Shown piece by piece: positions 4,754-64,000 of a DNA stretch of 64,000 nt. Position 1 is the stretch's first letter. Each line of letters begins with the position of its first letter. The stretch is from contig PWGV01000183.1 in NCBI GenBank assembly GCA_003554585.1, forward strand, positions 8,574-72,573. Direction: 5' to 3'. Made by a program: the position numbers and the translations under genes. The notes below the pieces were generated by a model, which saw only the letters and a list, made by a program, of their open reading frames with translations, was not told the DNA's origin and ran no database searches. This stretch comes from Halobacteroidaceae bacterium. Lineage in GTDB: Bacteria > Bacillota > Halanaerobiia > B1SED10-174.

Positions 4754-5806
4754 TTAAAAAATTATTCCGATAATAATAGCCAGGGTTACTCCCAGAGGAA
4801 TTAGGATGCCGCCCCATTTAATGGAAAGCGTGCTTTTTCCATCGGGATAAAGGGGAGTTTCAGGATCATAGTACTTTTGCAGGCTATCAATTACAGGTGT
4901 TTCAGCTCCTGCCCCTTTCAGGATGATCATAAGTTCGTCAGTTAAAACTTTGAGTTCATCCCGAGCCGCCCGGGGATGGCCTTCAATACTTGATTTAGCC
5001 ATTTCTTTACGCATAACGATCTCAACTAATTTAACAAAAACAGGCTCGGGGATTAATTCAACGATGCGCAGGAAAGAAGGGCTGGGAGGGATCCCGACAT
5101 TTTTCCGGAGTCCCCGCATTGCTTCTTTTATTCCCCTGACCCCTAAAATCTGGAGGTCCCGGGTCCGGGCAAGACGCTTCATGCTGATTCCTGCAGCATA
5201 CAACGCCGGGGCAAAAGCAGGCATTAAAAGGGCCACGTGGTACTTTAACCAGGCTTCCATATCTCTTCGAACCTGAACCTTATAACCCCGCATGGATCCT
5301 AATACCGAAGCTATCTCCCGTGTTCTTTCCCTGACTTCACCATCAACCTCTCCGATGGGAATGGTCCAGATCTTTTTCTCATTAACCGGGGCAATTTTCA
5401 TAATGTGTCCTTCTCTTTCCCCGCCGGGGTAAGGGAAACCCAGGAGAACTCTCTTTTGGCCCAGGGCTTTAATCCGCTTTTCTGGCCCTTCAGCGTTATT
5501 TAGCATGAACAGAAAAGTTTTTACTTCTTTGTTTCCGGCCAGGGTAGGGATAATTTCATCTGCCTGGTTTTTGCGCATGACTACCATTACAAGGTCATAA
5601 TCATCTTCAGGTTTTAAGGATTTAACAGGAGTAACTCTGGCAATTTCTTTCTTTTCCGATCCCTCTTCTTGAACTACAATTCCGTGCTTTTTAATATCTT
5701 CGAGGCGCTGGTTTCGAGCAAGAATTGAAACATTGTGTCCTGCTTCATGTAGTCTTGCTGCCATTAAACTCCCCAAGGGTCCAGCACCAAATACTAGAAT
5801 TTTCAT
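4754..5806 (-). CDS. Ketopantoate reductase (ApbA/PanE)-family NAD(P)-dependent oxidoreductase with C-terminal TM helix
   Basis: N-terminal Rossmann motif MKILVFGAGPLGS. Family-like length plus a hydrophobic C-terminus, GILIPLGVTLAIIIGIIF. Confidence 0.6.
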   Translation of the reverse strand: MKILVFGAGPLGSLMAARLHEAGHNVSILARNQRLEDIKKHGIVVQEEGSEKKEIARVTPVKSLKPEDDYDLVMVVMRKNQADEIIPTLAGNKEVKTFLFMLNNAEGPEKRIKALGQKRVLLGFPYPGGEREGHIMKIAPVNEKKIWTIPIGEVDGEVRERTREIASVLGSMRGYKVQVRRDMEAWLKYHVALLMPAFAPALYAAGISMKRLARTRDLQILGVRGIKEAMRGLRKNVGIPPSPSFLRIVELIPEPVFVKLVEIVMRKEMAKSSIEGHPRAARDELKVLTDELMIILKGAGAETPVIDSLQKYYDPETPLYPDGKSTLSIKWGGILIPLGVTLAIIIGIIF

Positions 5807-6043
5807 TTAACACCAACCCCCTTTGAAATTTGCTTCGATTTTTATTAAACTAACTCCCAGATCCCGAATACGATTAATGCAACCGAAGAAAGCTGCCTGA
5901 TCCTGGATCAGCCCGAAAAGGAGGGAGTTTCCTTCTGGTGTGTGTTGGGCTTTTAGTCCGGCGAACCATTCTGACCAGTCGGGATCTATATGCCCCCTGA
6001 TCCAAATTTTTAGTTTCACCTGATTTTTTGCCAAAGAATTCAT
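5807..6043 (-). CDS. Small conserved hypothetical protein (RGHxDxxWSxWF...DQAAxxGxxNRIRDLG type)
   Basis: GGAGGTG SD before MNSLAK at 6043. Abuts the downstream oxidoreductase gene. The sequence pattern is recognised from memory as a widespread uncharacterised family. Confidence 0.55.
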   Translation of the reverse strand: MNSLAKNQVKLKIWIRGHIDPDWSEWFAGLKAQHTPEGNSLLFGLIQDQAAFFGCINRIRDLGVSLIKIEANFKGGWC

Positions 6044-6144
6044 GTCGCACCTCCTGGAATGTTTCTTGCAGATCCATAATAATATTTTGGGGGCCAAAAG
6101 AGAACTGACGAAAGTTAGGTTAGGGTTAGGGAATGGGTTGGTAA

Positions 6145-6180
6145 ATAAAAAAACCGGGAAGCATCCCGGTTTTCAAAAAA
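6145..6180 (-). terminator. Rho-independent terminator downstream of the MalT-like gene
   Basis: On the minus strand: AACCGGGATGCTTCCCGGTT followed by a U-rich run. Confidence 0.65.
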
Positions 6181-6201
6181 AGGTTATTCAATTATATTTT
6201 T

Positions 6202-8889
6202 TTATTCTTCCCTGATCAGGTTCAATTCCCTTGCCCTGGCAATTGCTTCAGCCCTTCTTTCAACCAGGAGTTTGGTATAGATGTTACTAATGTGCCACTT
6301 AACTGTACCCACGGAAAGGAAAAGCTTATCAGCAATCTTCTGGTTGGATAATCCCCGGGCCAAAAGCTGTAGAATCTCCATTTCCCGTGGGCTCAGCCTG
6401 GTGACTTCCGAGGGAGTTAAAAGTTTCTGCTGGCCGTTGGTCCATTTTTCCCCAAGTCTATGGAGAATCCTGGCTGCAAATCTGGAAACCTTTCTTTTGG
6501 CAGGTATTCTGGAAAGAAGTCTTATAATTTCCTCTCCCTCGTCAAGGAAAGGTTGGATAAAGTTTTCGCTGCTTCCCAGGTTCAAGGCTTCGGTAAGATA
6601 GGAAATTGCTGAATTCTTATTATCTTTTCTACAGGCAAGTTGGGCCTTTAAAAGCAGGATTTCAATCTTAATTCCCCTTGCCTCGATTTGGGAGAGATTA
6701 TTTTCCAGGGTATCCAGAATTCTTTCAGCGGTTTGCAGGTTCCCTTCACTTATTTCCAGACGGGCCAGGACCAGGTGGATTGTTTCCTGCCCAAAGGAAG
6801 GTTTGTTTTCAGCAGAGGGTTTTAACCGGGATAGATAGTCCCGGGCCAGGGAGAAATCCCCTTCTTCGAGATAAATCCGGGCTCTCCAGGTAGAAACCAA
6901 CTGGCCAATGACCGCAGGCAGGCCGTCCTCACGCTGGATTTTTGCCATTTCTCCCAGGAGTTCCTGGGCTTTTGCCAGCTCTCCCGAGGAGAAACAAACC
7001 AGGACCAGGCAATACTGGCACCAGGCCAAAATTTGTTTTTCGGGTTGGCATATTTTTATAGCTTTCTTAATTTTATCTCGGGCCTTCTCCAGTTCATTTT
7101 GATCTTTATAAATTAAACCCTCAAGTGCAAGAAGGGGCCCGGTTCGGGGCATATTTGTGAGGTGGTTTTCTTCAGCATATTTAAGAATTTCGGTGCAAAT
7201 CTGGTGGGCTTCTCCCAGACGGCCCCGGTACCAGTGAATATTGCCGAGTTTCCAGCCCGCGAGTAACGTGGAAAAGTGCTGTCCGCTTTTTTTGGCCAGG
7301 GCAATAGCCCTTTCAAACTCTTCCGCAGCTTTATTCAAATCACCTTCCAGGGCCAGGGCGTCTCCAGCAGCCAGGGCTGCAAAACTATGCCATAGGGTTT
7401 TTTCCGGGGGCAGTTTTTCTTGGACTTCCCTGCTCCGGGTAACAATGGCCCTGGTATCGTTCTGGAAAATGGAGAGATAAGTCCTGATTAGGGCCAGCAT
7501 TCCCTCGAATTCCTTCCGTTCACTTTCATCGGTAATCTGGATCTCAGGGGCTTCTTCCATAAAGGAATCCAGCCCTTTTAAATTACCCCTAATGATTAAA
7601 AACAGGGCTTTATAGGCAAAAAGGCGAGGAAAAATTTTCAATAGATCGGAAGGGATTTTTTCAAGCCACCCGGAAAACCTCCTGTTGCCCTCCTGCTGCC
7701 AAATAAAGTCAGGATCCTCGTTAATTATTTCCAGGGCCCACTCCATGTTATCAAAGGCCAGGGCGTGTTCTACAGCCTGTCCTGGCTCCCCTCTTTCCAG
7801 GAAGTGGCGGGCGGCCCTTTCGTGCAGGGCTGGGAGCAGATCTTCATCCCGAATGGAAAGCTGAAAATTTAAAAGCTCAGCAAAAAGTGGATGGTAGCGG
7901 TATTTGAAAACATCTGGATCGACAGGGGTTAAAAAAAGGTTTTGATTTTCCAGCTTAATTAGGATCTCCCCGCTGTCCCCTCTACCCGTAATAGCCTGGC
8001 AGATGGAAGGATCCAGGGTTTTCAATATCGAGGTCTGTAAAAGGAAATCCTGGATTTCCGGGGGTTGCTGGGATAGGACCTCTTCTGTTAAAAAGTTGAG
8101 GATATGGCGGTGGCTCCCGGTAAAGTTCCGGATGAAAGACCGGAGGTCCTTCTGGTTTTGCATCGAATGGGCAGCCATCTGCAGGCTCGTAACCCAACCC
8201 TCTGTTTTCCGGGTTAAATCACTTAAGTCCTCCTCGGTAAGGTTTTCCAGGCCGAATAAATCCAGGAACTCTTTTATTTCATAAGGAGAAAACCGCAGGC
8301 GGTCACCGCGGATTTCCGTCAGCTGTCCCCGGGCTCGCCAGCGGGCCAGAGGCCAGGGTGGATCAGCCCGAGAGGTAACAAACAGTTGAATATGGGGAGG
8401 CAGGTTCTCAATGAAAAAGGAAAGGTTTTCCTGGATTGTTTTTTCTTCGATAAGATGGTAATCATCCAGGATCAGGAATAAGGGTTCGTCAATTTCAACA
8501 AGTTCGTTTAAAAAGGAGACGAGCAAACTTTGTTCAGGAGAAAATTCAGGGTTGGGGGCCCCGGCCTGAATATTCTCCAGGGCAAAATCACCCAGACCTG
8601 GTTCGACTCTCTGCAGAGCAGAAATAAAATAGGTCCAGAAAAGGCGGGGATCATTATCACTCTCATCCAGGCTGTACCAGGCTGTTCTCCCTTCCCATTT
8701 TGCCGCCCACTGCAGGGCAAGAGTCGTTTTTCCAAACCCGGCTGGAGCCGAAATTAAAATCAGTTTGCGGGGATATCCCCGGGCAGGAGTAGGGCCTTTT
8801 TCAATCTGTTCTAAAAGGCGGGTCCTTTTTACCAGCCCTACCGGTTGAGGTGGTGGAGTTATTTTAACTTTCAGTAACCTTCCAGCCAT
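6202..8889 (-). CDS. MalT-like STAND ATPase / LuxR-family transcriptional regulator
   Basis: 895 aa. Walker A APAGFGKTT and Walker B LFLILDDYH. Long TPR-like helical middle region. C-terminal LuxR HTH (LSPREMEILQLLARGLSNQKIADKLFLSVGTVKWHISNIY). Confidence 0.85.
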   Translation of the reverse strand: MAGRLLKVKITPPPQPVGLVKRTRLLEQIEKGPTPARGYPRKLILISAPAGFGKTTLALQWAAKWEGRTAWYSLDESDNDPRLFWTYFISALQRVEPGLGDFALENIQAGAPNPEFSPEQSLLVSFLNELVEIDEPLFLILDDYHLIEEKTIQENLSFFIENLPPHIQLFVTSRADPPWPLARWRARGQLTEIRGDRLRFSPYEIKEFLDLFGLENLTEEDLSDLTRKTEGWVTSLQMAAHSMQNQKDLRSFIRNFTGSHRHILNFLTEEVLSQQPPEIQDFLLQTSILKTLDPSICQAITGRGDSGEILIKLENQNLFLTPVDPDVFKYRYHPLFAELLNFQLSIRDEDLLPALHERAARHFLERGEPGQAVEHALAFDNMEWALEIINEDPDFIWQQEGNRRFSGWLEKIPSDLLKIFPRLFAYKALFLIIRGNLKGLDSFMEEAPEIQITDESERKEFEGMLALIRTYLSIFQNDTRAIVTRSREVQEKLPPEKTLWHSFAALAAGDALALEGDLNKAAEEFERAIALAKKSGQHFSTLLAGWKLGNIHWYRGRLGEAHQICTEILKYAEENHLTNMPRTGPLLALEGLIYKDQNELEKARDKIKKAIKICQPEKQILAWCQYCLVLVCFSSGELAKAQELLGEMAKIQREDGLPAVIGQLVSTWRARIYLEEGDFSLARDYLSRLKPSAENKPSFGQETIHLVLARLEISEGNLQTAERILDTLENNLSQIEARGIKIEILLLKAQLACRKDNKNSAISYLTEALNLGSSENFIQPFLDEGEEIIRLLSRIPAKRKVSRFAARILHRLGEKWTNGQQKLLTPSEVTRLSPREMEILQLLARGLSNQKIADKLFLSVGTVKWHISNIYTKLLVERRAEAIARARELNLIREE

Positions 8890-26912: not shown

Positions 26913-28742
26913 ATGCCAACCAAATTGTCCTTTGGAAGAAGGACTCTGTTTCTGTTATTGAGTCTTGTTTTGTTTTTGTTTATTCAGGGTTGCGATTCCA
27001 TAACAGGTGATAGTTACAAGCTTTTTGTGGAAGTTGAAGGGAAAGGGTTAGTTGAAATTTCACCGAAAACCTCTACTTATCAACCGGGAACTGAGGTTAG
27101 TTTAAAAGCAGTTACTCCCCCTGATGGGGAATGGGAGTTTTCCCACTGGAGTGGAGATGTTTCGAGTAACGAGGAAGAAATAAGCATAATCATTGAAGAG
27201 GATGTCCTGGTAGTAGCGTATTTTGATTTAATCAACGGAGCTTCTTTAGAAGGAAGTATTACTATCCAGCATTCCTGGCCCAACTCCCCCAATTTTTCTG
27301 GAAAGCAAAACACTGCCTCCAGTTCTGAAAAAATATCGGTATCGGAAGGGGAGTATAAAAGGGACGAACTAATTATCCAGTTGATGCCTTTCTCTGCAGC
27401 AGCAGAAAAGATTAATGTTGCTAACGCTCTTGGGGGAGAAATAATAGGGGAAATTAAAGAACTGCAAAAGTTACTGATAAGTGTCTCCGGAGATGCAGTG
27501 GGGATAGTGGCCAGGGCCGAAAAATTACCCGAAGTAATAAGTGTCCAACCCAACTATATTTATCAAACCCAGGATAAAATTCCCAACGATCCCTTCTTTT
27601 CTCATCAATGGCACTACCCCCTGATCAGACTCCCCCAGGCCTGGGAAAAAACTGCAGGGAGCGGAAGTATTAATATTGCTGTTTTGGATACAGGGGTTGA
27701 TGGTAACCATCCTGACCTGGATAAGGTTGTTCAGGGTTATAATTTTATAGATGATAATGAAGATCCCATGGATTATAACGGGCACGGAACTCATGTTGCC
27801 GGTACCATAAGGGCAGCAACAGATAATAAAAGCGGAGTTTCCGGAGTCATGTGGCAGGGCAATATTGTTCCCGTGAAAGTTTTGGGTGATAACGGTTATG
27901 GTACTACCTATAGTGTTGCCCGGGGAATTTTATATGCTTCCGATCTTCTGGAAACCCTTAAAAACCCCAATCCCGCCCAGGTAATCAATATGTCTTTAGG
28001 AGGAGATCCTCCTAAAGACGACACGCTGGAGAAAGCTGTTAAAAAGGCCAGAGAAAATGGAACAATTCTTGTGGCCTCGGCTGGTAACACCGATGAAAGC
28101 CAGCTTGGCTACCCCGCAGCTCTGGAAGATGTTATTTCCGTTGGTTCTGTTGCTTACAGTTCTTCAGGTCCCCCGCCCCGAGCAAGCTATTCCAATTACG
28201 GCGAAGATCTGGATATTGTTGCTCCCGGCGGTGGTCATGGTAGCGGAGTGCTGAGCACATATTTTTCCGGCAATGGAGATAATAAAACATATCAATACGG
28301 ATATATGATGGGGACCTCCATGGCTGCTCCCCATGTTTCTGGAGTGATTGGCCTGATGCTTGGTGTGGGGATTCCCGAGAGAGAAATCCGGGAAATTCTC
28401 CATAAAACAGCAATGGATTTGGGAGAGGAAGGATTTGACCCTGAATTTGGCCACGGTCTTGTTAACGCTAACTGGGCGGTCAACGGGGTTGATAGTATAA
28501 GAATTATTATTGGAAAGAAGGAGGGAAATACATTCAAATCCCTTGCTGAAAAAACAATTTCCCTTGAAGATAAATTTTTTGCAATACCTGAAGTTGTTCC
28601 TGGAGAATATCGGGTTTATGCCTGGATCGACATTGGAAATAACGGTATTCTCGAACCGGGAGATTATTTTGCAGAATCAGAGTTAATTTATTTTGGCCCC
28701 GGGCTGGAGGTTACTGTGGACCTGATTTTGCAGGAATTTTAG
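26913..28742 (+). CDS. Secreted S8 subtilisin-family serine protease with N-terminal InlB-B-like repeat
   Basis: Signal or lipoprotein-like leader (..FIQGCDS). Catalytic D (AVLDTGVD), H (HGTHVAGT), S (GTSMAAPHVSG). 609 aa. Confidence 0.9.
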   Translation: MPTKLSFGRRTLFLLLSLVLFLFIQGCDSITGDSYKLFVEVEGKGLVEISPKTSTYQPGTEVSLKAVTPPDGEWEFSHWSGDVSSNEEEISIIIEEDVLVVAYFDLINGASLEGSITIQHSWPNSPNFSGKQNTASSSEKISVSEGEYKRDELIIQLMPFSAAAEKINVANALGGEIIGEIKELQKLLISVSGDAVGIVARAEKLPEVISVQPNYIYQTQDKIPNDPFFSHQWHYPLIRLPQAWEKTAGSGSINIAVLDTGVDGNHPDLDKVVQGYNFIDDNEDPMDYNGHGTHVAGTIRAATDNKSGVSGVMWQGNIVPVKVLGDNGYGTTYSVARGILYASDLLETLKNPNPAQVINMSLGGDPPKDDTLEKAVKKARENGTILVASAGNTDESQLGYPAALEDVISVGSVAYSSSGPPPRASYSNYGEDLDIVAPGGGHGSGVLSTYFSGNGDNKTYQYGYMMGTSMAAPHVSGVIGLMLGVGIPEREIREILHKTAMDLGEEGFDPEFGHGLVNANWAVNGVDSIRIIIGKKEGNTFKSLAEKTISLEDKFFAIPEVVPGEYRVYAWIDIGNNGILEPGDYFAESELIYFGPGLEVTVDLILQEF

Positions 28743-28993: not shown

Positions 28994-30176
28994 GTGGATG
29001 CTATTGATAAAAATACTCTTCAGGTTTTCAGCCTGGGCCGCTTCGAAGTCAGGAGAGGCGGACAGCCTATCTCCCAGGAAGAACAACGTTTGAATAAAAG
29101 ATGGCGACTTTTCCAAATATTAATTACTTATAAAGGGCAGGCCTTATCATCGGAGCAAATGTATAAATATTTTTCCCTGGAAGAGAGTGTTAACCCCTCT
29201 GAGGCTTTGAAGAGTCTTGTTTTTTATCTTCGACGCTCTCTGGAAAAGGACAAAGGTAAAATAAAAAATGGGGAACAGTATATTATTTGTTCCCAAGGGC
29301 GTTATTTATTCAATGAAAAATCACACTACTGGCTTGATGCTGAAGTATTTGAAAACCTGTGTAAAAAGGGTAGGCAGGTTGCGGAGGAATCAGCTGCAGT
29401 AGCCATTGATATGCATCTTGAAGCCCTTTCACTTTACCGGGAAATTACCTTAGGGAAGTTCCACATGCTTACTGGGCTATTTCTGCCCGCAATCATTACC
29501 GGGAACTCTATCTACGGGCTATGCTGGAGGCGAATGAACTATTTAGAAAGGAAGCAAGGTATGAGAAGCCTGGGAACTTTGCGAAGCAGGACTGCGTATT
29601 GTTCCCCTGGAAGAAAAACTCCATACTAGTTCCCTGAAAGCCTTGATTGATGGGGGGAAAGCTGGGCTGGCTTTAGTCCAGTATCAAGAAGCAGCTTCTT
29701 TATTCAGGGAAAATGGGTTGGATGTTCCTGCAGCTTTAAAGGGCCTGGGAGAATCTCTGAAAAAAGAAAGCAAAAAACAAGAAAAACCAGAAGAAATTTT
29801 GCGAAAGTTGCAGGCGAGAAGTCGGGAAGAAGGGGCTTTTGAAAGCGGTCTGGAGAGTTTTTCATTGATCTATGAACTGGAAAAAAGTAGAAGTGAACGG
29901 AGGCAAAAACCCGGCTACCTTGTTTACTTGAATTTAAATGGGGAATGCCCGGATTCTGAAGTTTCGCGGGTTGGCAAAAGCTTAAAAGAATCTTTAAAGA
30001 AAAATTTGCGCAAAGGAGATGTTTTTTGTAATTGGAGCCCAAGGAATTATCTGGCTATTCTTATAAATGTTCCTTCGGGGGAGATAGGTAAAATTATGGA
30101 GAGAATTAAAAATAATGTAACCCGGGAATGTGCTGGTACTGAAATGGAATTTGAGCACAGGCGGAAGGAAATATAA
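28994..30176 (+). pseudogene. SARP-like (wHTH+BTAD) regulator with degenerate GGDEF C-terminal domain, two frameshifts (paralog copy 1)
   Basis: Paralog of 60159-61370 and 63858-end. The reading goes frame 2 to frame 1 (G-run near 29438) to frame 0 (near 29567), which restores ..SLYRGNYLREVPHAYW..RYEKAWELCEAGL... The C-terminus has RKGD-VFCNW-SPRNY in place of RxxD-x5-GGDEF. Confidence 0.75.
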
Positions 30177-30424
30177 GGGAGACCTGCGAGGGGCTCCTTT
30201 TTATTTTGGTTAGATATTCTTTTACCAGCACTGCAAAAACAGGGAGAAAAAAGTTTGTGTTAGGGAGCCCCCCCTAAAGAAGGTTCTTTTTCTTATAACC
30301 TTAATCTAACCTGATTTTAACCCTTGAATAACTGACAGGGTTAAAAAGGGGTGTTATACTTCAAGTAAAGAGGGTGTATTAGCATAGGCGGATAGTTGCT
30401 TCTGGGGAATAGGGGGACTTAAAA

Positions 30425-30709
30425 GTGGCAGAGGAACGCTTGGTTGTTGAAAAAAAACTAGTTTTTTCAATAAAAATTTATTCCCGGAATGGGCTTGATA
30501 TTCAGGGAGAAATTAAGAATATAGGATCCGGTGCCCAGGAGAAATTTAATGATTTTTTTGAACTTGCTTATATTTTAGAAAAATATCTTGAACGAATTAA
30601 CCCCGATTTTTCCATTGAAAATGCGAGATCCTGGGACAATGATGAAGGTTCAGTTGATAAACAGGGGGAGCGCTTGTTTAAATTTATGCGGAGTTTAAAG
30701 CCCTTTTAA
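30425..30709 (+). CDS. Small conserved cytoplasmic protein, divergent member of the WQGEI/FRSxLEM family
   Basis: 94 aa. GTG after AGGGGGA. Shares the pattern F.I.I....QGEI...F..F.EL..IL...LE...RSWD with 30711 and 61580. Confidence 0.6.
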   Translation: MAEERLVVEKKLVFSIKIYSRNGLDIQGEIKNIGSGAQEKFNDFFELAYILEKYLERINPDFSIENARSWDNDEGSVDKQGERLFKFMRSLKPF

Positions 30710-30710
30710 A

Positions 30711-31001
30711 ATGAATGAGGGAGTGAAAACGTTGTCCCCAAAGACAGGTGATAAGAAAAAGAAAATTGGTTCCACAGATTTCCTGATTCGCGTCCAGTTC
30801 CGGCAGCATTCAACCTGGCAGGGAGAAATTCAGTGGCTGGGTGTTAAACACGAGCGGAGACGTTTTTTCCGGAGTTTTTTGGAAATGGTAATGCTAATCC
30901 AGGAAGCCTTAGAAAAAGAAGGTAAAATAGAGCCGAGTATTACTTTGCAAAACTGGGATGAAATCCAGGAGAAACTTTTAAAAACAAGACCCGCGGAGTA
31001 A
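30711..31001 (+). CDS. Small conserved cytoplasmic protein (WQGEIQW...FRSFLEMVMLIQEALEK)
   Basis: 96 aa. An alternative TTG start at 30732 follows GAGGGAGTG. Close paralog of 61580-61843. No signal peptide. Confidence 0.7.
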   Translation: MNEGVKTLSPKTGDKKKKIGSTDFLIRVQFRQHSTWQGEIQWLGVKHERRRFFRSFLEMVMLIQEALEKEGKIEPSITLQNWDEIQEKLLKTRPAE

Positions 31002-31015
31002 CCTAAAAAGGTAGG

Positions 31016-32382
31016 GTGAAAATCATGGAAAAGAAAAACACCTTGCTGATTTTAATAACAATTTTCTTGTTAGCAACGTCGGCAGGAGCGGCTGACCGAC
31101 CAGCAGTTGATTTCGGCACGTATACCGCCCCACAAGAAATTAGTAAGACGGTGGCGGTTCTTGTGCCCCTGGCCGATGAGGGGTGGAGTACCTGGAAGTG
31201 TGGCTGGAAAGTTTACCCGCAACAGAAGATAGGTTGCTCACCCTGGAAGGACAGCGGTTGAAGTTAGAAACCCGTGGATGGATATACTGGGTGGATATAG
31301 ACCCGGTCGCTATTCCCACGGAACATCAAATGCTGACCGATGATAATACAACCGCCCTGCCGTTAATGGTAACCTATACAATTAAACCGCAGGATAGGCC
31401 GGGGCAATATAGAACAGTTCTGGTTATGCGGGAGATGGGCAGTGAAGGTCTGATTAAAGAAAGATCTCTTCCCATTCGTTTGCAAATTAATCCCTGGGTG
31501 AAAATTGAAACAGTTTCTGGAGACGTCCCTGTAGGGAGCTGGGGAGAAGAACCGGGGATTTTAATTAACCGAATTCCCGGTGAAGTTAGAGTGGGTTCCA
31601 ACTCCAACTGGCAACTTTTCCTCGAATGTTTCCCGATAGAAGAATTAAAATCGGGAGATTTGGAACTGGTCCTGATGACCGGGGAGGATAGTGGATTTGA
31701 GGGTCTTACCCAGCTTTCAGTTCGGCTCAAAGAGGAGCAAATTCTCCTCGGTGGGGGGAGGGCCGACATATGTTATGATTGGAATGTTAATGAAAAAAAT
31801 GAACTAGTTGAATATGAAATGGGAACTTTAAAAGAAACCCTGGATGGGTTAATCCGTTTCAATCCCCGGCGATCTTCTCTGGAACCTTGGGAATCGCAGA
31901 TAGTAAGAATTACAATAAATTTCCCCGAAGGTGAGGGGGAGCCTTTTGAGCGAAGGGGGATTATTTTTTTCGAGCACGAGGAAGAGGCCGAAATGGAGGA
32001 ATGGTTAGGGGCTGTTATTAAAACAATGATTGGCGCTATCATTTATGCAAGGCCCAGCGAATTCAGTTTTAATTTCCTGCTGATAGAAGGTTTAGTATTA
32101 AGCGGTCCCAGTGGCCAACAGGTGGCAGCTCTTCTATTGGGAAATCCTTCATTTGTTCATGCTCGCTTTACTATTGATTACAGGGTAGTAACTGCGGAAG
32201 GGGAAATTTTCGAGGAAGGAGAGGTAACGGAAAAGGTTTTTTTACCGGAAACAGCAAGAACAATTTATATTCCTTTTCAAAAACCATATCCGCCCGGAGA
32301 ATACAGATTAATTCTTGAATTGAAATTTACCGACATAGATTTTAGGTTGAATGAAGTTGTTTCTTTTCGAGTTGAAGATTAG
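31016..32382 (+). pseudogene. Secreted hypothetical protein (~455 aa) with one apparent frameshift
   Basis: A signal peptide ORF (31016-31261; probable ATG at 31025) overlaps a 399-aa ORF (31183-32382) in another frame. The junction is a G4 run at about 31179-31182. I recognise no family. Confidence 0.55.
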
Positions 32383-32503: not shown

Positions 32504-33989
32504 TGTTGAGGGTCAAGACATAGGTAACACTTTAGGGCCAGGACATAGGTTACACTTATAACCAATAATTAGGAAAATTTCAGTTTTTAACAACCATTTT
32601 AGGTCAGGACATAGGTAACAGTTTAATGTTTAAATAGGGGCAACACATAGGTTACAATTTGCCCAGTGTCTAAATCATCCTTGAGGTGATTTAGATGCCA
32701 TATCAAGAACAACAGCGTCAAGAAGCCATGCAGCGTTATCTTTCCGGTGAGAGCATTTCCAGTATCTGCAGGGATTTTAAGCGGAGCCGAAAATGGTTTT
32801 ACAAGTGGCAAAAGCGGTATGAATCAGGGAACCCGTATTGGTATAAGGTTGAAAGCCGGGAACCTCGTGAAAAGCCCCGGAAAATTGCTCCTGAAGTTGA
32901 AGAAACTATTATTCAGGTTCGTCGCAAACTAAAACAGGATAAGTATGCCCGGATTGGCCCCCAAATGATTGACTGGGAATTGAGAAGGTTAGGTTATGAT
33001 CCTCCTCCTTGCCTTTCAACTATCAAAAGGGTTATTCGTCGAAATAAGCTTGTTACAAGGCTTGAGCGGTATGAGAAGAAGGGGACTACATACCCCCAGA
33101 TTCCACCTCTTTTCCCAAATACAATACATCAAATAGATTTTTGGGGTCCTCGTTATATTAAAGGAGATGGAAGGTTCCACAGTCTTAATGTCATGGATAT
33201 TTATACTCGCAGGGTTAGTACTTACCCTGCCAGGCGCAAAAGAACCCAAGAAGCTTTAGAAGGCATCAATACTGTCTGGAAATTGATGGGAGCCCCGGAG
33301 TTTATGCAATTTGACAATACCCTGGCATTTAGGGGTAGTAATAGATACCCCCGTTCTTTTGGGCCTGTTATTAAATGGTGCCTGAGACATAGAATACAAC
33401 CGGTCTTTATACCCTTTGGTGAGCCCTGGAGAAATAGTCATTTAGAAAAGTTTCACCACACCCTTGAAAAGCAGTTTTTTCGGCGGATCAATTTTAATAG
33501 TTTTACTAATTTGGTCCAGGAAATAGAGGGGTTCAAAACCTATCATAATCAGCATTACCGTTACAGTCCACTTAACGGATATACCCTTGAAGAAGTATAT
33601 GAGCGTGATCGAATTTGTCCAGATGCTTCCCTGGGAACAGATTTTTCCATGGATGAGGATATTCCTTTAGAAGACGGCTACATTCACCTTATACGGTTTA
33701 TCCGCAGTGATCGTAAACTTAATATTTTCGGCGAAACTTTCCCGGTACCTAAAGAATTAGAATATGAGTATGTGGTAGCAACAATATGCACAGATAACCA
33801 CTTTATCAGGGTCCATGATAACCAGTGGAAATCCCTTTTCACCATACCGAATTCCCATCGACAGTTTGTAACCTATGTCCTGGCCCTAAAAGGGTTTTAG
33901 GAAAATCCACGGCCCCTAGGGGCCGTGTAACCCATGTGGTGATCCCCTAAAGCCATTAGGAAGTGTAACCTATTTGATGGACTTCAACA
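32504..33989 (+). mobile_element. IS481-family insertion sequence
   Basis: Imperfect terminal IRs, TGTTGAGGGTCAAGACATAGGTAACAC / GTGTAACCTATTTGATGGACTTCAACA. Flanking 6-bp near-repeat TGTACT / TGTAAT. Subterminal repeats ACATAGGT(A/T)ACA, 4 left and 3 right. Single rve transposase gene. Confidence 0.75.
32695..33900 (+). CDS. IS481-family DDE (rve) transposase
   Basis: 401 aa. N-terminal HTH. Catalytic residues in IHQIDFWGP, MQFDNTLAF and WRNSHLEKFHHTLEK. Confidence 0.85.
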   Translation: MPYQEQQRQEAMQRYLSGESISSICRDFKRSRKWFYKWQKRYESGNPYWYKVESREPREKPRKIAPEVEETIIQVRRKLKQDKYARIGPQMIDWELRRLGYDPPPCLSTIKRVIRRNKLVTRLERYEKKGTTYPQIPPLFPNTIHQIDFWGPRYIKGDGRFHSLNVMDIYTRRVSTYPARRKRTQEALEGINTVWKLMGAPEFMQFDNTLAFRGSNRYPRSFGPVIKWCLRHRIQPVFIPFGEPWRNSHLEKFHHTLEKQFFRRINFNSFTNLVQEIEGFKTYHNQHYRYSPLNGYTLEEVYERDRICPDASLGTDFSMDEDIPLEDGYIHLIRFIRSDRKLNIFGETFPVPKELEYEYVVATICTDNHFIRVHDNQWKSLFTIPNSHRQFVTYVLALKGF

Positions 33990-36276
33990 TGTAATTCTTA
34001 AAATCAAGACCGAAATTCAAGACCTTTGGTGGGATGATTTTTTGAGATTCTTGATAAGCAGGACTACATCCTTTTGCCTGTTGCTGAAATTTCTAGGTAT
34101 CTGGACCTGCAACCCCGTTATTTTCGCGAAGAAAATCCCCTTTATATTGAACATGTTCCCAGTAGCAGGAGTGCCAGGATTGACTTAAAATTGGGTATTT
34201 ATGAAGGGTACCCTGAACTATCAGCCCAACCTCCAGTTCAGCACGAGGGGGACTTTTTTGTTTCCTCTTCTTTAATCGAAAGCCTTACCGGGGGCAAATT
34301 AGCTGGAACCCAAGGCGACAGGAGGTAACAATTTTCCCGAGTGGAGAATTAGTTCCGTCCGGGCCTTTACTTCGATTTCTGGAGAGGCCAGCCCGGGAGA
34401 TACAGTTACTCTTTATGTTAATGAACGCCGGGTTGACGAAGTATATGTTTTCAGAGGAGAACAGTCCTATAAATTCGAGGAAGTTTCTTTGATTTCCAAC
34501 CGCATTAACACTATCAGGATTGAAATCAGGAGGTTTGACGGGGAAATTGTGGAGATAGAAAAGCAAATACCAGGAAGCCCCAATATCCTGGAAGAAGGAG
34601 TTTGGGAATACCTTGTTTTCCTTGGAAGGTATGGAGGAAAAGGTGGAAGAGATTATAAAGGTGATATTGTTGGACAGGAAATGAAATTTGCAATTACCGA
34701 TCGGGTTACGGGAACCTGGGAATTGCTGGGTTAAGGGATTTTGATTCGAGCGGTGAGCCCAAGGATTTTGTTGAGGTTGGTAATGTACTAGGACTTGCTT
34801 TATGGCCCTTTGATGCTCCCCTGCTTTTTTCAGTTGATTGGCTTACTGGTGGAATATTCGGGGAACTGGCCCATGGATTCAGGTCAGCAATGCTTATTAC
34901 ACTGGAAAAAGGCTATTTTGAACTGGGTTTCTCTTATGTCCCTCCCCCAGTAACGGTGGGAGTTAGAGAAGATTCCGGGGTTAATGTTTGGACAACCCTG
35001 GATTATGAATTATCTCCTGATTATGGTTTATCCTTAACTGGTGAACTATATCGACCCCTTTGGGATTTGGAATATAAAACCGGCCAGAAGGTAGAGACAA
35101 CGGTCAGTTATCGAGACGGCAGAAGATTATCCCTGGCAGTTACGGGAGCTCTGGGGCATCGTTTTTATATTGATAAAGATACAAGCGGAAAGGATCGTTA
35201 CAACGATATTATCGACCTGGATTTAATTTTTGAACACAGGTCCTTTACACCAGGAGGTTCGACCCGGAGCAAAATAGGTTTTCTGGGGGGATACCTTTAT
35301 CCCGGCGACCATCACCCGTATTTATTATCCAATGTTATTTTCGACCTGGGTTTCACCAGGAACCTTACTGATGATTTTCTGGTAGGAGGCAATGCCAGTA
35401 CTTCTGCTTTTTGGTTGGGAACGAAATTTGAGGAACTGAAAGTAAGAGCTGATGCCAGAGCGAGAATTACGGCAAGCGATAATTTAATAATTACGGGGAC
35501 GGGGTTACTCGAGGGAGAGGGAGAGCAGGAAAATGATGATCTGGTGGAAGCGGGAAAAATAGAACTGGGGATTTCAGCTACCTATTATTTTTCCCGTCAG
35601 TTTTATACCACGGGGGAGTTAAAATGTACCCGTTTACCCCAAACCGAGGATGCTTTTTACACCAGCAAGGGTACAGTTTTTTATAATAACCCGGATTTGA
35701 ATCTTAGATTGTCCCTGCGAGGGGAATACCTGACTCCAACAAATTTCAGGGAAGTGCCTCAAATAAAAGCAGGGATAACCGCAACAAAAACTTTTTCATC
35801 CGGCTTGGGTATTTCTCTGAATGCTGCTCGAACTTACCGTTCCGCAACAGCCGTAGCACCTGAATATACTGTTGGATTTTCAATAAACCAGACAATTGGC
35901 TTTGCCGGCGGGAATATTTTCGGTCAGAGATACCCTTCAGGCACAGACCACGTTTCTTTTATCGCAGGTGTTGTTTACCTTGATGAAAATGGGAATGGCA
36001 TTCGGGATAAAGGAGAGCCATTACTTTCCGATATACCCATTCTTCTTGATCGAAGAAGGATCAGGACGGATGAGGAGGGAGGGTTCTTTTTTGAAAGGAT
36101 CAGACCTGGATTATATGAAGTGGGTATTGATCCTGCCCAGCTATCTGGAGAATACCAGATAATTACTCCGAAGAAGGTTGTTCAGATCCGAGAAAATGAG
36201 AATATTTTCCTTGAGTTCGGTGTAACTAAGTCGGAGTAAAAAGGAAAAAGTACTAACAAAAAATAGAGGATGAAAT

Positions 36277-36305: not shown

Positions 36306-36430
36306 TTGGGAAAAAAGTTTTTTCAACCTTTCGAGGAAATTGAGCAGAAAATAATTTGCAGGGTTTTTAATTTTTCTGGCAAAATAAAAGATAGAGTCCA
36401 GGCAGGTTTTGGTTTGAGGGGGTGTGGTTT

Positions 36431-37333
36431 TTGATTATAAGCGCGAGCCGGAGGACAGATATTCCGGCCTTTTATTCTTCCTGGTTCATGGATAAAATTA
36501 ATCGCTCTTACTGTGTTGTAAGTAATCCTTTCAATCCCCGGCAGGTTAAGCGGGTAAGCTTAAAAAAGGAAGATGTAGACCTGTTTGTCTTTTGGACAAA
36601 AAATCCCGATCCCTTGATTCCTCACCTGGAAAAACTGGATAGAATAGGCTTTAATTACTATTTCCTGTTCACTTTGAATCCCTACTCCGAAGAGATAGAA
36701 CCGGGGCTGGAGAGTGTTGAAAAAAGAATAGAGGTTTTCCAGGAGTTATCCAGGCTTATCGGGCCGGGAAAAGTAATCTGGCGTTATGACCCGATAATAT
36801 TAACTCGAGGGATGGATCTGTTTTACCACAGGGAGCAGTTTGATTTTTTATCATCTGCCTTAAAAGGAGCAACCAGGCGGGTTATAATTAGTTTTTATTC
36901 TTCCTACCGTTCCGGAGATAAGCGCCTGAAAAAGGCAGGGATGGATATTTTTTTTCCGGAAAACTGGGAGAAGAAGCGGAAGGAGTTTCTCCATGATCTG
37001 GCCAAAATTGCCCGGCAAAAGGGAATGGTTGTCCAGGGATGTGCACAAAAAGATCTCGAAGGAACTGGAATTGGGCGGGGTAAGTGCATCGATAACGATT
37101 TTATCGAGGAAACTTTTGGGCTAAGTTTCCAGGCTAAAAAAGATACTGGGCAAAGGCCTGGGTGTGGTTGTATTCCCAGCCAGGATATAGGTTCCTATGA
37201 TACCTGTTTGCATGGCTGTCTGTACTGTTACGGCTGGGGTAGCAAAAAAAGGGTTGAAGGTAATTTTTCACATTATAATTATGAATTTCCCTCCCTGGCT
37301 GGAACAGTAAATGAAAATAAGGAATTCAAGTAA
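36431..37333 (+). CDS. DUF1848 domain-containing protein
   Basis: N-terminus (M)IISASRRTDIPAFY is typical of DUF1848. C-terminal Cys cluster CGCIPSQDIGSYDTCLHGCLYCYG. TTG at 36431 follows GAGGGGGG (the ORF opens at GTG 36422). Confidence 0.7.
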   Translation: MIISASRRTDIPAFYSSWFMDKINRSYCVVSNPFNPRQVKRVSLKKEDVDLFVFWTKNPDPLIPHLEKLDRIGFNYYFLFTLNPYSEEIEPGLESVEKRIEVFQELSRLIGPGKVIWRYDPIILTRGMDLFYHREQFDFLSSALKGATRRVIISFYSSYRSGDKRLKKAGMDIFFPENWEKKRKEFLHDLAKIARQKGMVVQGCAQKDLEGTGIGRGKCIDNDFIEETFGLSFQAKKDTGQRPGCGCIPSQDIGSYDTCLHGCLYCYGWGSKKRVEGNFSHYNYEFPSLAGTVNENKEFK

Positions 37334-60158: not shown

Positions 60159-61370
60159 TTGGGTGGGCAGGAACAAAAACAATTAAAAATCTTTACCCTT
60201 GGCAAGTTTCAGGTTTTTACAGGGGAAGAAAACCTGACAAAAAAATATCCCAAAAGCAGGAGACCCTGGCTTTTATTTCAGTTTCTATTAACCAATGCTG
60301 GGCAATCATTGTCTTCAGAAATTGTTGTTGGAACTCTCTGGCCGGCCACCAATTATGAAAATCCGCAGCATTCATTACGAAATCTTGTATACCGGTTACG
60401 TCAAATGTTGAAGGATGAAGGAAACGGAGATAGGTACATAATTCAAACCCAGGGTAATTATTCCTTTAATACCCGGTCTAATTACTGGTGTGATTTTGAA
60501 GAACTGGAGAAACTTTTAGAACGTGCTTTTTCTTTAAAGGATAAGGATCCCCAAAAAATAAAGTTACTCGAAAAAGCATATCAACTTTACGGTGGGGAGT
60601 TTCTTCCCTCCAGACCCTACGAGGAATGGACAGTGAACCTTCGGCTTTACTGCCAGAGGATTTTTCTTAAGGTAGTAGTTGAACTAAACCGCCTCTACGA
60701 GGAAAAGAACCAGTGGAAAAAAACAATAGCCCTGTGTGAAAAAGCCCTTGAATTTGAACCTTTTGAAGAAAATCTTCACTGGAGTTATGTGCAGTCTCTG
60801 ATAAAAACTGATCAGAAGGCCCGAGCAAAAAACCACTACCATCAGACCCACGCTCTTTTTCAAAAAGAGTTGGGTGTTAGTCTGGGGTTTGATATTGATG
60901 AGATGATTAATAAACATAATAACTTTGAGCCGAAAAATTCATCTTCAACATGGGGCGATTTCCAGGAAATTTTAGAGGAAAAAGAAGAGGATAAAGGGGC
61001 ATTCATTTGCGATGGCGAAAATTTCAGGATGATATACCAGCTTGAAGAAAGGCGAGCGGAGAGAAACATAAGAAAATCAAGCCTTGCTTCCTTACAACTA
61101 ATTGCCCCTAAGGGGAAGAAATTACCAGAAGCAGAATTGGATGAAAAAAGCCGGATATTGCAGGGGACTCTTTTGAATTGTCTGAGAAGGGGTGATGTTA
61201 TCTTTCCCAATAAGCCGGGCGAATTTCTCCTTTTACTGGTTGATGTTCCTCCGGATAAGGTTGATAAAGTTTTAAACAGGATAGCCTCCAAATATTACGA
61301 GAATAGTCCAGATGATGAAGTGAGAATTAATGTAAGGCATCGCCCGTTATTACAAGGAGGAACAATTTAA
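60159..61370 (+). CDS. SARP-like (wHTH+BTAD) regulator with degenerate GGDEF domain retaining RxxD (paralog copy 2, intact)
   Basis: LKIFTLGKFQV..LRNLVYRLRQML (wHTH). YQLYGGEFLP..W (BTAD). C-terminal RRGD-VIFPN-KPGEFLLLLV. The ORF opens at 60069, but by comparison with the paralogs the probable start is TTG 60159 after GGTGGAAG. Confidence 0.75.
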   Translation: MGGQEQKQLKIFTLGKFQVFTGEENLTKKYPKSRRPWLLFQFLLTNAGQSLSSEIVVGTLWPATNYENPQHSLRNLVYRLRQMLKDEGNGDRYIIQTQGNYSFNTRSNYWCDFEELEKLLERAFSLKDKDPQKIKLLEKAYQLYGGEFLPSRPYEEWTVNLRLYCQRIFLKVVVELNRLYEEKNQWKKTIALCEKALEFEPFEENLHWSYVQSLIKTDQKARAKNHYHQTHALFQKELGVSLGFDIDEMINKHNNFEPKNSSSTWGDFQEILEEKEEDKGAFICDGENFRMIYQLEERRAERNIRKSSLASLQLIAPKGKKLPEAELDEKSRILQGTLLNCLRRGDVIFPNKPGEFLLLLVDVPPDKVDKVLNRIASKYYENSPDDEVRINVRHRPLLQGGTI

Positions 61371-61380
61371 TTTAAAATTA

Positions 61381-61405
61381 GCACCCAAGTGGTGCTTTTT
61401 TTTTG
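61381..61405 (+). terminator. Rho-independent terminator
   Basis: AGCACC-CAAG-TGGTGCT followed by T9. Confidence 0.75.
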
Positions 61406-61495
61406 TTTTTTTTTAAAAAATTTAATTCCTATAAAACCTTTAATAATAAGTTTTTTGGGGTTTTCTGGGAAAATTTTAATTCTAATGAGATTTTC

Positions 61496-61540
61496 TTGTG
61501 ACCAAAACGGGATTGTTTTGTGACACTAAAGAGTTAGAAT
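61496..61540 (+). promoter_or_regulatory. Direct heptamer repeats TTGTGAC-N15-TTGTGAC followed 10 nt later by a -10-like TAGAAT
   Basis: Exact repeats at 61496-61502 and 61518-61524 (22-bp period). TAGAAT at 61535-61540. About 40 nt upstream of the small gene. Confidence 0.45.
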
Positions 61541-61579
61541 GAAGAAAACCGGTAAAAGCCGGGGCTGCGGGGGATTTAA

Positions 61580-61843
61580 ATGAGAAAGGAAGGAAAAATC
61601 TGCCACTTAATACCTCCAGGAGGAGCTTCCTTTATTGTGAGGATCCTGAATTGCCAGCAGAATAACTGGAAAGGGGAAATCAGATGGCTGGACGGAAAGG
61701 GTAATGTCTACTTCAGGAGTTTACTAGAGATGGTAATGCTTATCCAGGAAGCTCTTGAAAAACAGGACTTGCATTCTGAGGTGGATGATTTCCGTTCCTG
61801 GACTGAAATTGAAGAGATCACCGAGGGGAAAGAGAGAAATTAA
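61580..61843 (+). CDS. Small conserved cytoplasmic protein (WKGEIRW...FRSLLEMVMLIQEALEK)
   Basis: 87 aa. GCGGGGGA SD. Paralog of 30711-31001. Confidence 0.7.
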   Translation: MRKEGKICHLIPPGGASFIVRILNCQQNNWKGEIRWLDGKGNVYFRSLLEMVMLIQEALEKQDLHSEVDDFRSWTEIEEITEGKERN

Positions 61844-63857: not shown

Positions 63858-64000
63858 ATGGGTATAGATAAAAAAACGCTTCAGATATCAACCCTTGGCC
63901 GTTTTGAGGTAAAAAGAGGAGGACAAAAAATTTCCCCCAAAGACCAGCGACTTGGCAAACGCTGGCGTCTTTTCCAAGTACTTATTACCTTCAAGGGACA
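63858..64000 (+). CDS. SARP-like regulator paralog copy 3 (5' partial, runs off the window)
   Basis: MGIDKKTLQISTLGRFEVKRGGQKISPKDQRLGKRWRLFQVLITFKG closely matches the N-terminus of copy 1. GGTGGTG SD. Confidence 0.7.
   Translation, partial: MGIDKKTLQISTLGRFEVKRGGQKISPKDQRLGKRWRLFQVLITFKG

Follow-up and report, generated by a model that had tools for sequence, protein, structure and literature searches.

A SARP-like regulator with a degenerate GGDEF domain and a new small-protein partner family, probably a switch for cell-surface structures in anaerobic Bacillota

A 64,000-nucleotide (nt) stretch of DNA from a Halobacteroidaceae bacterium (contig PWGV01000183.1, forward-strand positions 8,574 to 72,573; hereafter the window) contains one intact and one decaying copy of a regulatory cassette that is conserved among anaerobic Bacillota, together with one solo regulator. 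The cassette pairs a regulator, probably an activator of the Streptomyces antibiotic regulatory protein (SARP) type that senses cyclic diguanosine monophosphate (c-di-GMP), as its domains and motifs suggest, with a small protein of a domain family that we call WQG. Because the pair stands before pilus and adhesin genes in hundreds of genomes of anaerobic Firmicutes, it is probably an undescribed switch for cell-surface structures. Four parts follow one another in order: (i) the activator, with an OmpR-type winged helix-turn-helix and a BTAD domain (jointly a SARP domain) and a C-terminal GGDEF fold that is dead as a cyclase and keeps the RxxD motif; (ii) a terminator, then a promoter in which the −35 element is replaced or overlapped by three or four 11-nt direct repeats; (iii) one or two genes for a cytoplasmic protein of the new beta-beta-beta-alpha WQG domain; and (iv) in most genomes, co-directional surface genes, encoding LPXTG/VWA/isopeptide pilin-type adhesins with sortases, TasA/camelysin-like proteins, or fimbria-like operons with a secretin.

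The cassette in the window

There are three paralogous regulators in the window, and small proteins follow only two of them. An earlier note on this DNA had counted the regulator plus small-protein module three times; the three regulators stand, and the module itself occurs twice, since a soda-lake sediment metagenome contig identical to the window end (L001; comparison contigs and loci are given L numbers) carries regulator 3 complete (6221–7405, 394 amino acids, aa) with a convergent Crp-family gene next and no small open reading frame (ORF). All the ORFs that the note had placed are present in the ORF listing, and Pfam finds the OmpR-type winged helix and BTAD in all three regulators, as it had proposed (regulator 3 being judged from the full-length L001 copy). 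Of the three loci, locus 2 is intact, locus 3 consists of a single regulator and locus 1 is decaying, with only its two small genes intact. The genes, all on the forward strand (+), are:

28994–30176 (+), regulator 1, winged helix-turn-helix, BTAD and degenerate GGDEF, a pseudogene (Pfam Trans_reg_C, BTAD and a faint GGDEF match)
30425–30709 (+), small protein of 94 aa, a divergent N-type copy of the WQG domain (profile match; identical in L095; same 94-aa gene in L096–L098)
30711–31001 (+), small protein of 96 aa, canonical WQG domain (FRQHSTWQGEIQW...FRSFLEM; sequence and profile match)
60159–61370 (+), regulator 2, intact, 403 aa, winged helix-turn-helix, BTAD and degenerate GGDEF, RRGD then KPGEF (Pfam, family alignment)
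61580–61843 (+), small protein of 87 aa, WQG domain (NNWKGEIRW...FRSLLEM; ORF listing, profile search and structure prediction with AlphaFold2, AF2)
63858–64000, running off the window end (+), N-terminus of regulator 3, no small partner after it (complete in L001)

The WQG domain family

The small ORFs at 30425, 30711 and 61580 encode one common domain of three beta strands and a helix, with the core FRQNASWQG...FRS.LE. The 30711 and 61580 proteins are 46% identical (E = 6e-18); the 30425 protein is 21% identical to that of 61580 (E = 3e-5) and also matches the family profile. None of the three (30425–30709, 30711–31001, 61580–61843) has a hydrophobic N-terminus, in agreement with the earlier view that they lack signal peptides. 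One shared motif, previously read as WQGEIxW, is really W[QK]GEI[QR]W (WQGEIQW versus WKGEIRW). The 17-residue stretch FRS[F/L]LEMVMLIQEALEK is exactly as had been described: one residue differs, and between 30711 and 61580 its codons have six synonymous changes and one non-synonymous change. Over the whole genes, the check that had been proposed alongside, the non-synonymous rate dN is 0.55 and the synonymous rate dS is saturated, which indicates that the paralogs are old and that the 17-residue stretch is under selection.

An exhaustive profile search returned 1,891 cluster representatives at E ≤ 1e-3, of which 316 reach E ≤ 1e-10; the clusters are at 50% identity, and 1,891 is a lower bound. 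Family members have one copy of the domain (~80–100 aa), two (~140–180 aa) or three to four (~260–300 aa). The core consensus is F.[IV]R[IV].FRQNASWQG.[IV].W...FRS.LE[LM], with F, Q, G, W, F-R-S and E nearly invariant. AF2 folds the window protein as three strands and then a helix with a core pLDDT (predicted local distance difference test) above 84, and a two-domain homolog with a core pLDDT above 90 in both halves. Given the number of representatives, the confident AF2 cores and the codon pattern of the 17-residue stretch, the small ORFs are genuine folded proteins under selection, which upholds the earlier inference of purifying selection on a real protein.

Where a protein has two domains, the N-terminal one is divergent and the C-terminal one canonical, the order seen in the tandem genes 30425/30711, and such proteins are the top profile matches of the small-protein search. 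Tandem pairs of single-domain genes also occur in L006, L011, L012, L013, L020, L025 and L096. By named sources and genome titles the family is almost wholly Clostridia; carriers include Syntrophomonadaceae, Dethiobacter, Peptococcaceae, Oscillospiraceae/Ruminococcaceae, Lachnospiraceae, Christensenella, Anaerovoracaceae and Halanaerobiales. A typical Clostridia-type two-domain gene also lies on a contig titled 'uncultured thaumarchaeote' (L071, CAKXAF010000019.1), probably through a binning or labelling error.

Every member is labelled hypothetical in the source databases. The three window proteins and 10 diverse homologs have no match at or near threshold in Pfam or NCBIfam, and a profile search of PDB sequences with WQG gave nothing below E = 0.05. 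Foldseek reached at best E = 0.4 with one domain and 0.05 with two domains against PDB, and 0.02 against BFVD, with low TM-scores (template modelling) throughout. Together with PADLOC these searches gave nothing significant, consistent with the earlier statement that the small proteins belong to no characterized family. The weak Foldseek neighbors (chromodomain, Pur-alpha/PC4-like, MHC-like platform) were not used to assign a fold (E ≥ 0.05, TM ≤ 0.34), and an anti-phage defence or toxin-antitoxin module was dropped as a candidate, PADLOC being without any match.

The regulators and their dead GGDEF domain

Regulator 2 matches Trans_reg_C (PF00486) at E = 2.7e-6, above the cut-off, and BTAD (PF03704) at E = 1e-12, and the public gene call on L001 is identical to it. 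A regulator family alignment and profile was built from 39 members, in which Pfam detects BTAD in 39/39, Trans_reg_C in 34/39 and GGDEF (PF00990) in 23/39 (E ≤ 0.01). The profile matches the AfsR SARP domain (2e-16) and EmbR (1e-9), and at profile positions 305–393 several solved GGDEF domains (2e-8); a further search of proteins with it gave at least 34 matches. By themselves the window regulators match GGDEF under threshold (E = 0.096). Family profile, Pfam and alignment thus agree with the earlier assignment of the C-terminal domain as a degenerate GGDEF.

The GG[DE]EF signature is absent from all 39 regulators, its position reading [NS]xxQ[YF] in nearly all, so they are not cyclases. The RxxD inhibitory site, as R[KR]GD, is present in every member, always exactly 5 residues ahead of where GGDEF would be; in the window the copies are RRGD...KPGEF (regulator 2), RKGD...GPHNF and RKGD...SPRNY. 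Since RxxD is kept in register, as in PelD and PopA, we infer that the domain may be a c-di-GMP receptor.

A tentative alternative, which we think unlikely though by no means negligible, is that the domain is a dimerization or docking module, possibly for WQG, or senses a different nucleotide, for example GTP. There are precedents for degenerate GGDEF domains that serve protein-protein contacts rather than signalling, and the evidence for c-di-GMP binding consists of the RxxD motif and overall homology. Moreover, the conserved Q and Y/F at the former E-F positions, with other conserved positions, suggest a remodelled pocket. Against this alternative stand the persistence of RxxD in the exact canonical I-site register in 39/39 members, despite the loss of every catalytic residue, and the PAS-GGDEF-HD-GYP enzyme that locus L003 encodes beside its cassette. 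We continue to regard c-di-GMP as the predicted ligand.

Two paralogous regulators stand in tandem before a single WQG gene in L093 (913–3588), which suggests that heteromeric or hierarchical use of the regulators is possible.

Promoters and 11-nt repeats

A terminator-like hairpin closes both intact regulator genes, which indicates that the small genes have their own promoters. The elements between regulator and small gene are:

30296–30333 (+), putative operator of locus 1, TAACC at 30296, 30307 and 30318 and TAACT at 30329, at exactly 11-nt spacing (repeat search)
30332–30360 (+), promoter-like CTGACA-17-TATACT with a TG extension (10/12 consensus matches; conserved in L096)
61380–61405 (+), intrinsic terminator after regulator 2, a 6-bp stem and T-run (sequence)
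61486–61524 (+), putative operator of regulator 2, TGAGA at 61486, TGTGA at 61497, a degenerate CGGGA at 61508 and TGTGA at 61519 (11-nt register)
61535–61540 (+), candidate −10 element TAGAAT, TAAAAT in relatives, ~8–10 nt past the last repeat (sequence and conserved alignment columns)

The chance expectation for the locus-1 array is 0.00 (100 shuffles), and the array is 100% identical in L096, a contig 87% identical overall. Its last repeat is overlapped by the CTGACA hexamer, so that the array runs into the promoter. The locus-2 repeat block is the conserved part of the intergenic alignment with L089, L091 and L093; a consensus promoter scan of this locus found no −35 hexamer and did not report the TAGAAT.

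The spacing is general. Among 42 regulator-to-WQG intergenic regions, identical 6-mer pairs peak at a distance of 11 nt (57 observed versus 3.9 expected, z = 21), with further peaks at 22 nt (z = 7) and 33 nt (z = 8); neither the region upstream of the regulator genes nor the one that separates WQG from its downstream neighbor shows the 11-nt peak. In promoters targeted by SARPs, direct repeats stand 11 or 22 bp apart, the 3′ repeat adjoining the −10 element, and SARP protomers bind side by side over the −35 region (PMC10936776). The repeats of the cassette match this operator signature, which makes the regulator their presumptive binder.

Two other candidate elements were discarded. An inverted repeat, TTAACCCT-N-AGGGTTAA, at 30317–30346 around the locus-1 −35 element is probably non-functional, its right arm not being kept in L096 (AGAATTAA). 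A riboswitch or leader RNA upstream of the small genes was rejected, Rfam giving zero matches, to these or any other element, at the gathering threshold in the window, L003, L006 and L008.

Gene neighborhoods across genomes

Representative genomes were scanned with the pattern RQNA[ST]WQG, taken from 11 closer sequences, which gave at least 557 loci; 80 were examined, their six-frame ORFs being searched with both halves of the window regulators. Selection by one motif biases this sample toward canonical domains. Regulator homologs with both halves (~400–450 aa) adjoin the small genes, and a first tally placed one directly upstream on the same strand in 43 of the 79 small-gene clusters with enough upstream sequence. 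The evaluable loci divide as follows, with the last line overlapping the others:

36/69, regulator directly upstream, same strand
9/69, regulator elsewhere in the 7-kb flank
24/69, no regulator in the 7-kb flank (e.g. Aminipila terrae L008, L006)
33/69, gene immediately downstream (+1) in one large homologous adhesin cluster

The neighborhood association with BTAD/GGDEF-like regulators that the earlier note had put forward as a check is thus strong across Clostridia. Pairing of regulator and WQG is frequent and not obligatory in either direction. Members of the adhesin cluster have a median length of 879 aa, some exceeding 2,300 aa, and carry LPXTG anchors, VWA, FctA and Spy0128-like isopeptide pilin domains and DUF7601; sortases are recurrent neighbors, and in some regulator-less loci a T2SSE ATPase recurs upstream.

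Closer relatives show a similar arrangement: (i) Dethiobacter L003 has a PAS-GGDEF-HD-GYP gene, the regulator, a two-domain WQG protein and TasA/camelysin-like proteins. The first of these genes (1149–2912) is immediately upstream of the regulator and is a possible local source or sink of c-di-GMP. (ii) L091 has the regulator, WQG, four signal-peptide proteins, a 508-aa protein and a secretin. Three small secreted proteins there (4812–6629; 169–215 aa) end in Y-[ST]-[DN]-T-I-T-x-T-[IV] and have no Pfam match; we presume that they resemble spore-coat-U or archaic fimbrial subunits. (iii) L093 has two regulators, WQG and an outer-membrane beta-barrel protein. (iv) L089 is syntenic with locus 2, its WQG paired with a regulator and no cargo gene seen after it. 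The secretin and beta-barrel genes suggest a diderm host, e.g. Halanaerobiales-like. Homologs of the downstream (fimbrial) genes of L091, L093 and L003 were not found in the window.

Proposed mechanism and its alternatives

The reading toward which we lean, with rather modest confidence, is that the cassette is a c-di-GMP-gated SARP-like activator that drives the small protein and surface-appendage operons. Regulator protomers would sit side by side on the 11-nt repeats and recruit RNA polymerase in SARP fashion, turning on, rather than repressing, WQG and the surface-protein genes downstream of it. Through the dead GGDEF domain this activation would be tied to a nucleotide signal, most likely c-di-GMP bound at RxxD. 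WQG, as the first product of the activated operon, would be a regulatory partner, and we favor feedback on, or cooperation with, the regulator. That WQG is most likely regulatory follows from the constancy of WQG and the repeat promoter while the cargo varies (sortase adhesins, TasA-like fibers, secretin fimbriae), which argues for a generic role.

Several observations weigh against this reading. WQG promoters without a nearby regulator also show 11-nt repeats (12 observed versus 1.1 expected, z = 10), among them TGAGA four times in the regulator-less L006, so that WQG itself or a regulator encoded elsewhere could be the binder. The 24 loci lacking a regulator in the flank belong here, as do regulators that lack a WQG and stand directly before a surface gene or alone (window regulator 3, L014). 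In this window the sole intact pair, locus 2, is without an adjacent target operon: a formamidase gene converges on the WQG gene, and no surface gene comes after WQG. RxxD is a four-residue motif, and its conservation could reflect constraints of fold or interface instead of c-di-GMP binding. The empty Rfam result for the window and three related loci counts on the same side. All of the evidence is computational; gene calls at the comparison loci were made by a crude longest-ORF method, and the counts are not independent, since the loci include close relatives. The weak point is what WQG does; its contact with the regulator is put forward as a proposal.

The repeats of regulator-less loci lead to a second alternative, in our view rather doubtful, in which WQG is an autonomous nucleic-acid-binding regulator. 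It would bind the 11-nt repeats, or act as an antitermination or RNA-binding factor for very long adhesin genes, with the SARP-like protein as one of several promoter inputs. WQG lies directly upstream of adhesin genes in 13 loci without a regulator in the flank, its one to four tandem domains could match tandem DNA repeats, and the +1 genes are often 1,000 to more than 2,300 codons long. R, Q, N, W, S and F are its conserved residues, and its domain core has a mildly basic median isoelectric point of 8.0. Whole proteins, however, are near neutral or acidic (median ~6.1–6.3), and neither Foldseek nor the PDB profile search finds similarity to any DNA- or RNA-binding fold that is known. Direct repeats of 11 bp are, by established knowledge, read by OmpR/SARP winged helices, and a regulator elsewhere in the genome could serve the regulator-less loci. 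The SARP-like protein stays our favored candidate for reading the repeats.

It is improbable that WQG is instead a cytoplasmic chaperone, or an export or assembly factor, for the surface proteins behind it, with no regulatory role. WQG does come first in surface-protein operons, and by a crude test signal-peptide-like N-termini are found in 65% of +1 same-strand genes versus 23% of the other locus genes. The cargo, however, spans unrelated families and export routes (sortase/LPXTG, TasA-like, secretin fimbriae, Tad ATPase contexts), and window locus 2 and L089 pair WQG and regulator with no cargo gene after them. Trivial paralog duplication within one genome, with no functional coupling and small ORFs that may not be genes, could appeal to the decay of locus 1 and the partnerless locus 3, and is effectively refuted by the 1,891 representatives, the 557 or more loci in representative genomes, the 11-nt repeat peak, gene order conserved across several Clostridia families, the confident AF2 cores and the six-to-one codon pattern of the 17-residue stretch.

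Decay of locus 1 and the rest of the window

An intact version of locus 1 is found in the 87%-identical contig L096, in the order regulator (394 aa), 94-aa gene, 96-aa gene, genes of 289, 306 and 270 aa, and a 1010-aa SdrD_B surface protein. Relative to it, the window locus has five lesions: three 1-nt deletions, one deletion of ~1.5 kb and one insertion sequence (IS). Regulator 1, which the earlier note had read as one ORF, is a pseudogene made of two (28994–29629 and 29643–30176); 1-nt deletions at ~29441 and ~29565 split it with respect to its intact 394-aa ortholog, and reading through it takes three frames. The third 1-nt deletion, in a G-run at 31180–31183, affects the secreted-protein gene after the small genes, and the ~1.5 kb are missing at 31768/31771, beside the IS element. 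Downstream lie:

31016–32382 (+), remnant of the downstream secreted-protein genes, a signal-peptide ORF (comparison with L096)
32508–33989 (+), IS insertion interrupting the locus-1 surface-protein operon, with a helix-turn-helix and rve transposase at 32695–33900 (Pfam; segment absent in L096)
34890–36239 (+), SdrD_B-domain surface protein, a remnant or relative of the 1010-aa protein ending the L096 operon (Pfam and L096 comparison)

Over window positions 30404–31524 there is 100% identity to an independently assembled contig from a different sequencing run (L095, Logan DRR846338). This segment spans both the frameshift at 31180 and the junction where the 30425 stop and the 30711 start abut as TTTTAAAATG, which indicates that these are real features of the genome and not assembly errors. 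A sequencing artefact is thereby rejected for the frameshift at 31180–31183, which L095 reproduces; the two deletions in the regulator rest on the comparison with L096. A single-nucleotide change in TTTTAAAATG would join the 30425 and 30711 ORFs into a two-domain gene, but an assembly error that broke such a gene is likewise rejected, because the L095 contig is identical, the 87%-identical L096–L098 keep the 94- and 96-aa genes, and tandem pairs occur in other taxa.

A subtilisin-like S8 peptidase with a lipoprotein-type signal sequence is encoded at 26913–28742, just upstream of regulator 1. Since a homolog (42% identity) lies between the regulator and tandem WQG genes in L020 (3946–6507), from a Halanaerobiales metagenome-assembled genome, the window peptidase may be in the same regulon. 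At 36422–37333, a few kb past locus 1, lies a DUF1848 protein (E = 8e-98) with no connection seen to the cassette. The remainder looks like ordinary chromosome, with a MalT-like LuxR regulator, a histidine kinase, two peptide ABC binding proteins, pyridoxal phosphate (PLP) enzymes and amidohydrolases; zero Rfam families, tRNA included, reach the gathering score in the whole 64 kb.

Comparison with known systems

The regulators share with the SARP activators AfsR, ActII-ORF4, DnrI and EmbR the OmpR-type winged helix with BTAD and, as putative targets, promoters with direct repeats 11 or 22 nt apart that abut or overlap the −35/−10 region. They differ in three respects: at the C-terminus, where known SARPs have NOD/TPR (AfsR), FHA (EmbR) or nothing, they have a degenerate GGDEF; they come from anaerobic Bacillota, a diderm soda-lake lineage among them, and not from actinomycetes; and the neighbors are surface-appendage genes instead of antibiotic-biosynthesis genes. 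AfsR-AfsS of Streptomyces appears to be the closest organizational analogue of the cassette, as there too the gene after the SARP has a promoter of its own, with a SARP box, and encodes a small cytoplasmic protein, although the likeness is in gene organization only. AfsS is a short repeat-containing protein with no reported fold, whereas WQG folds as three strands and a helix, can be repeated 2–4 times in tandem and stands at the head of surface-protein operons. The adjacent small-regulator gene afsS is a direct SARP target (PMC10936776).

Where signal reception is concerned, the parallels are different ones. PelD and PopA are degenerate-GGDEF receptors that bind c-di-GMP via an RxxD I-site, and like the regulators here they have lost GG[DE]EF and kept RxxD 5 residues upstream; neither is known to be fused to a DNA-binding SARP domain as the regulators here are, for which c-di-GMP binding is a prediction. 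The c-di-GMP-dependent transcription factors MrkH, VpsT, FleQ and BldD control adhesion, and the proposed logic would be the same, a second messenger acting on a transcription factor for fimbria or matrix genes. Their sensing domains are unrelated (PilZ, REC-like, AAA+ and the BldD C-terminal domain), no SARP is among them, and a conserved small partner of the WQG family is not known for any of the four. In Clostridioides difficile a c-di-GMP riboswitch reportedly controls sortase-anchored adhesins, so that LPXTG/sortase-substrate genes of Clostridia are tied to c-di-GMP there too; that system is RNA-based, whereas here a protein regulator would act, the window and three related loci having no Rfam riboswitch.

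A full-text literature search found no description of BTAD+GGDEF regulators or of the WQG small protein, in line with the earlier note, which knew of no described combination of SARP, degenerate GGDEF and small partner. That note had overlooked the pseudogenization of locus 1, the family membership of 30425, the link to surface operons, the 11-nt operators and the non-obligatory pairing; its interpretation is otherwise supported. We regard the sensor module attached to the SARP, the partner family and the class of targets as new.

Implications

To our knowledge, few protein receptors of c-di-GMP have been described in Firmicutes, and we know of little work charting pilus and adhesin regulation in strictly anaerobic gut and environmental Clostridia. 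A bolder version of our reading, for now speculative and distinctly doubtful, would make the SARP/dead-GGDEF regulator and WQG an unrecognized c-di-GMP-gated partner switch, the main transcriptional control of sortase pili, adhesins and matrix fibers across Clostridia, including the abundant Oscillospiraceae and Lachnospiraceae of the human gut; WQG would then be a new fold whose binding partner is the GGDEF-like domain of the regulator, RNA polymerase or the messenger.

At the strength of the present evidence, the SARP domain with an I-site-only GGDEF is a candidate new class of messenger-responsive transcription factor. Its partner is a large, unannotated family of small-protein domains (at least 1,891 clusters at 50% identity), and the operator signature of 11-nt direct repeats can be read straight from sequence; with all three, the regulon can be predicted and put to the test across hundreds of genomes. 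The cassette would extend SARP-type activation well beyond the antibiotic clusters of actinomycetes.

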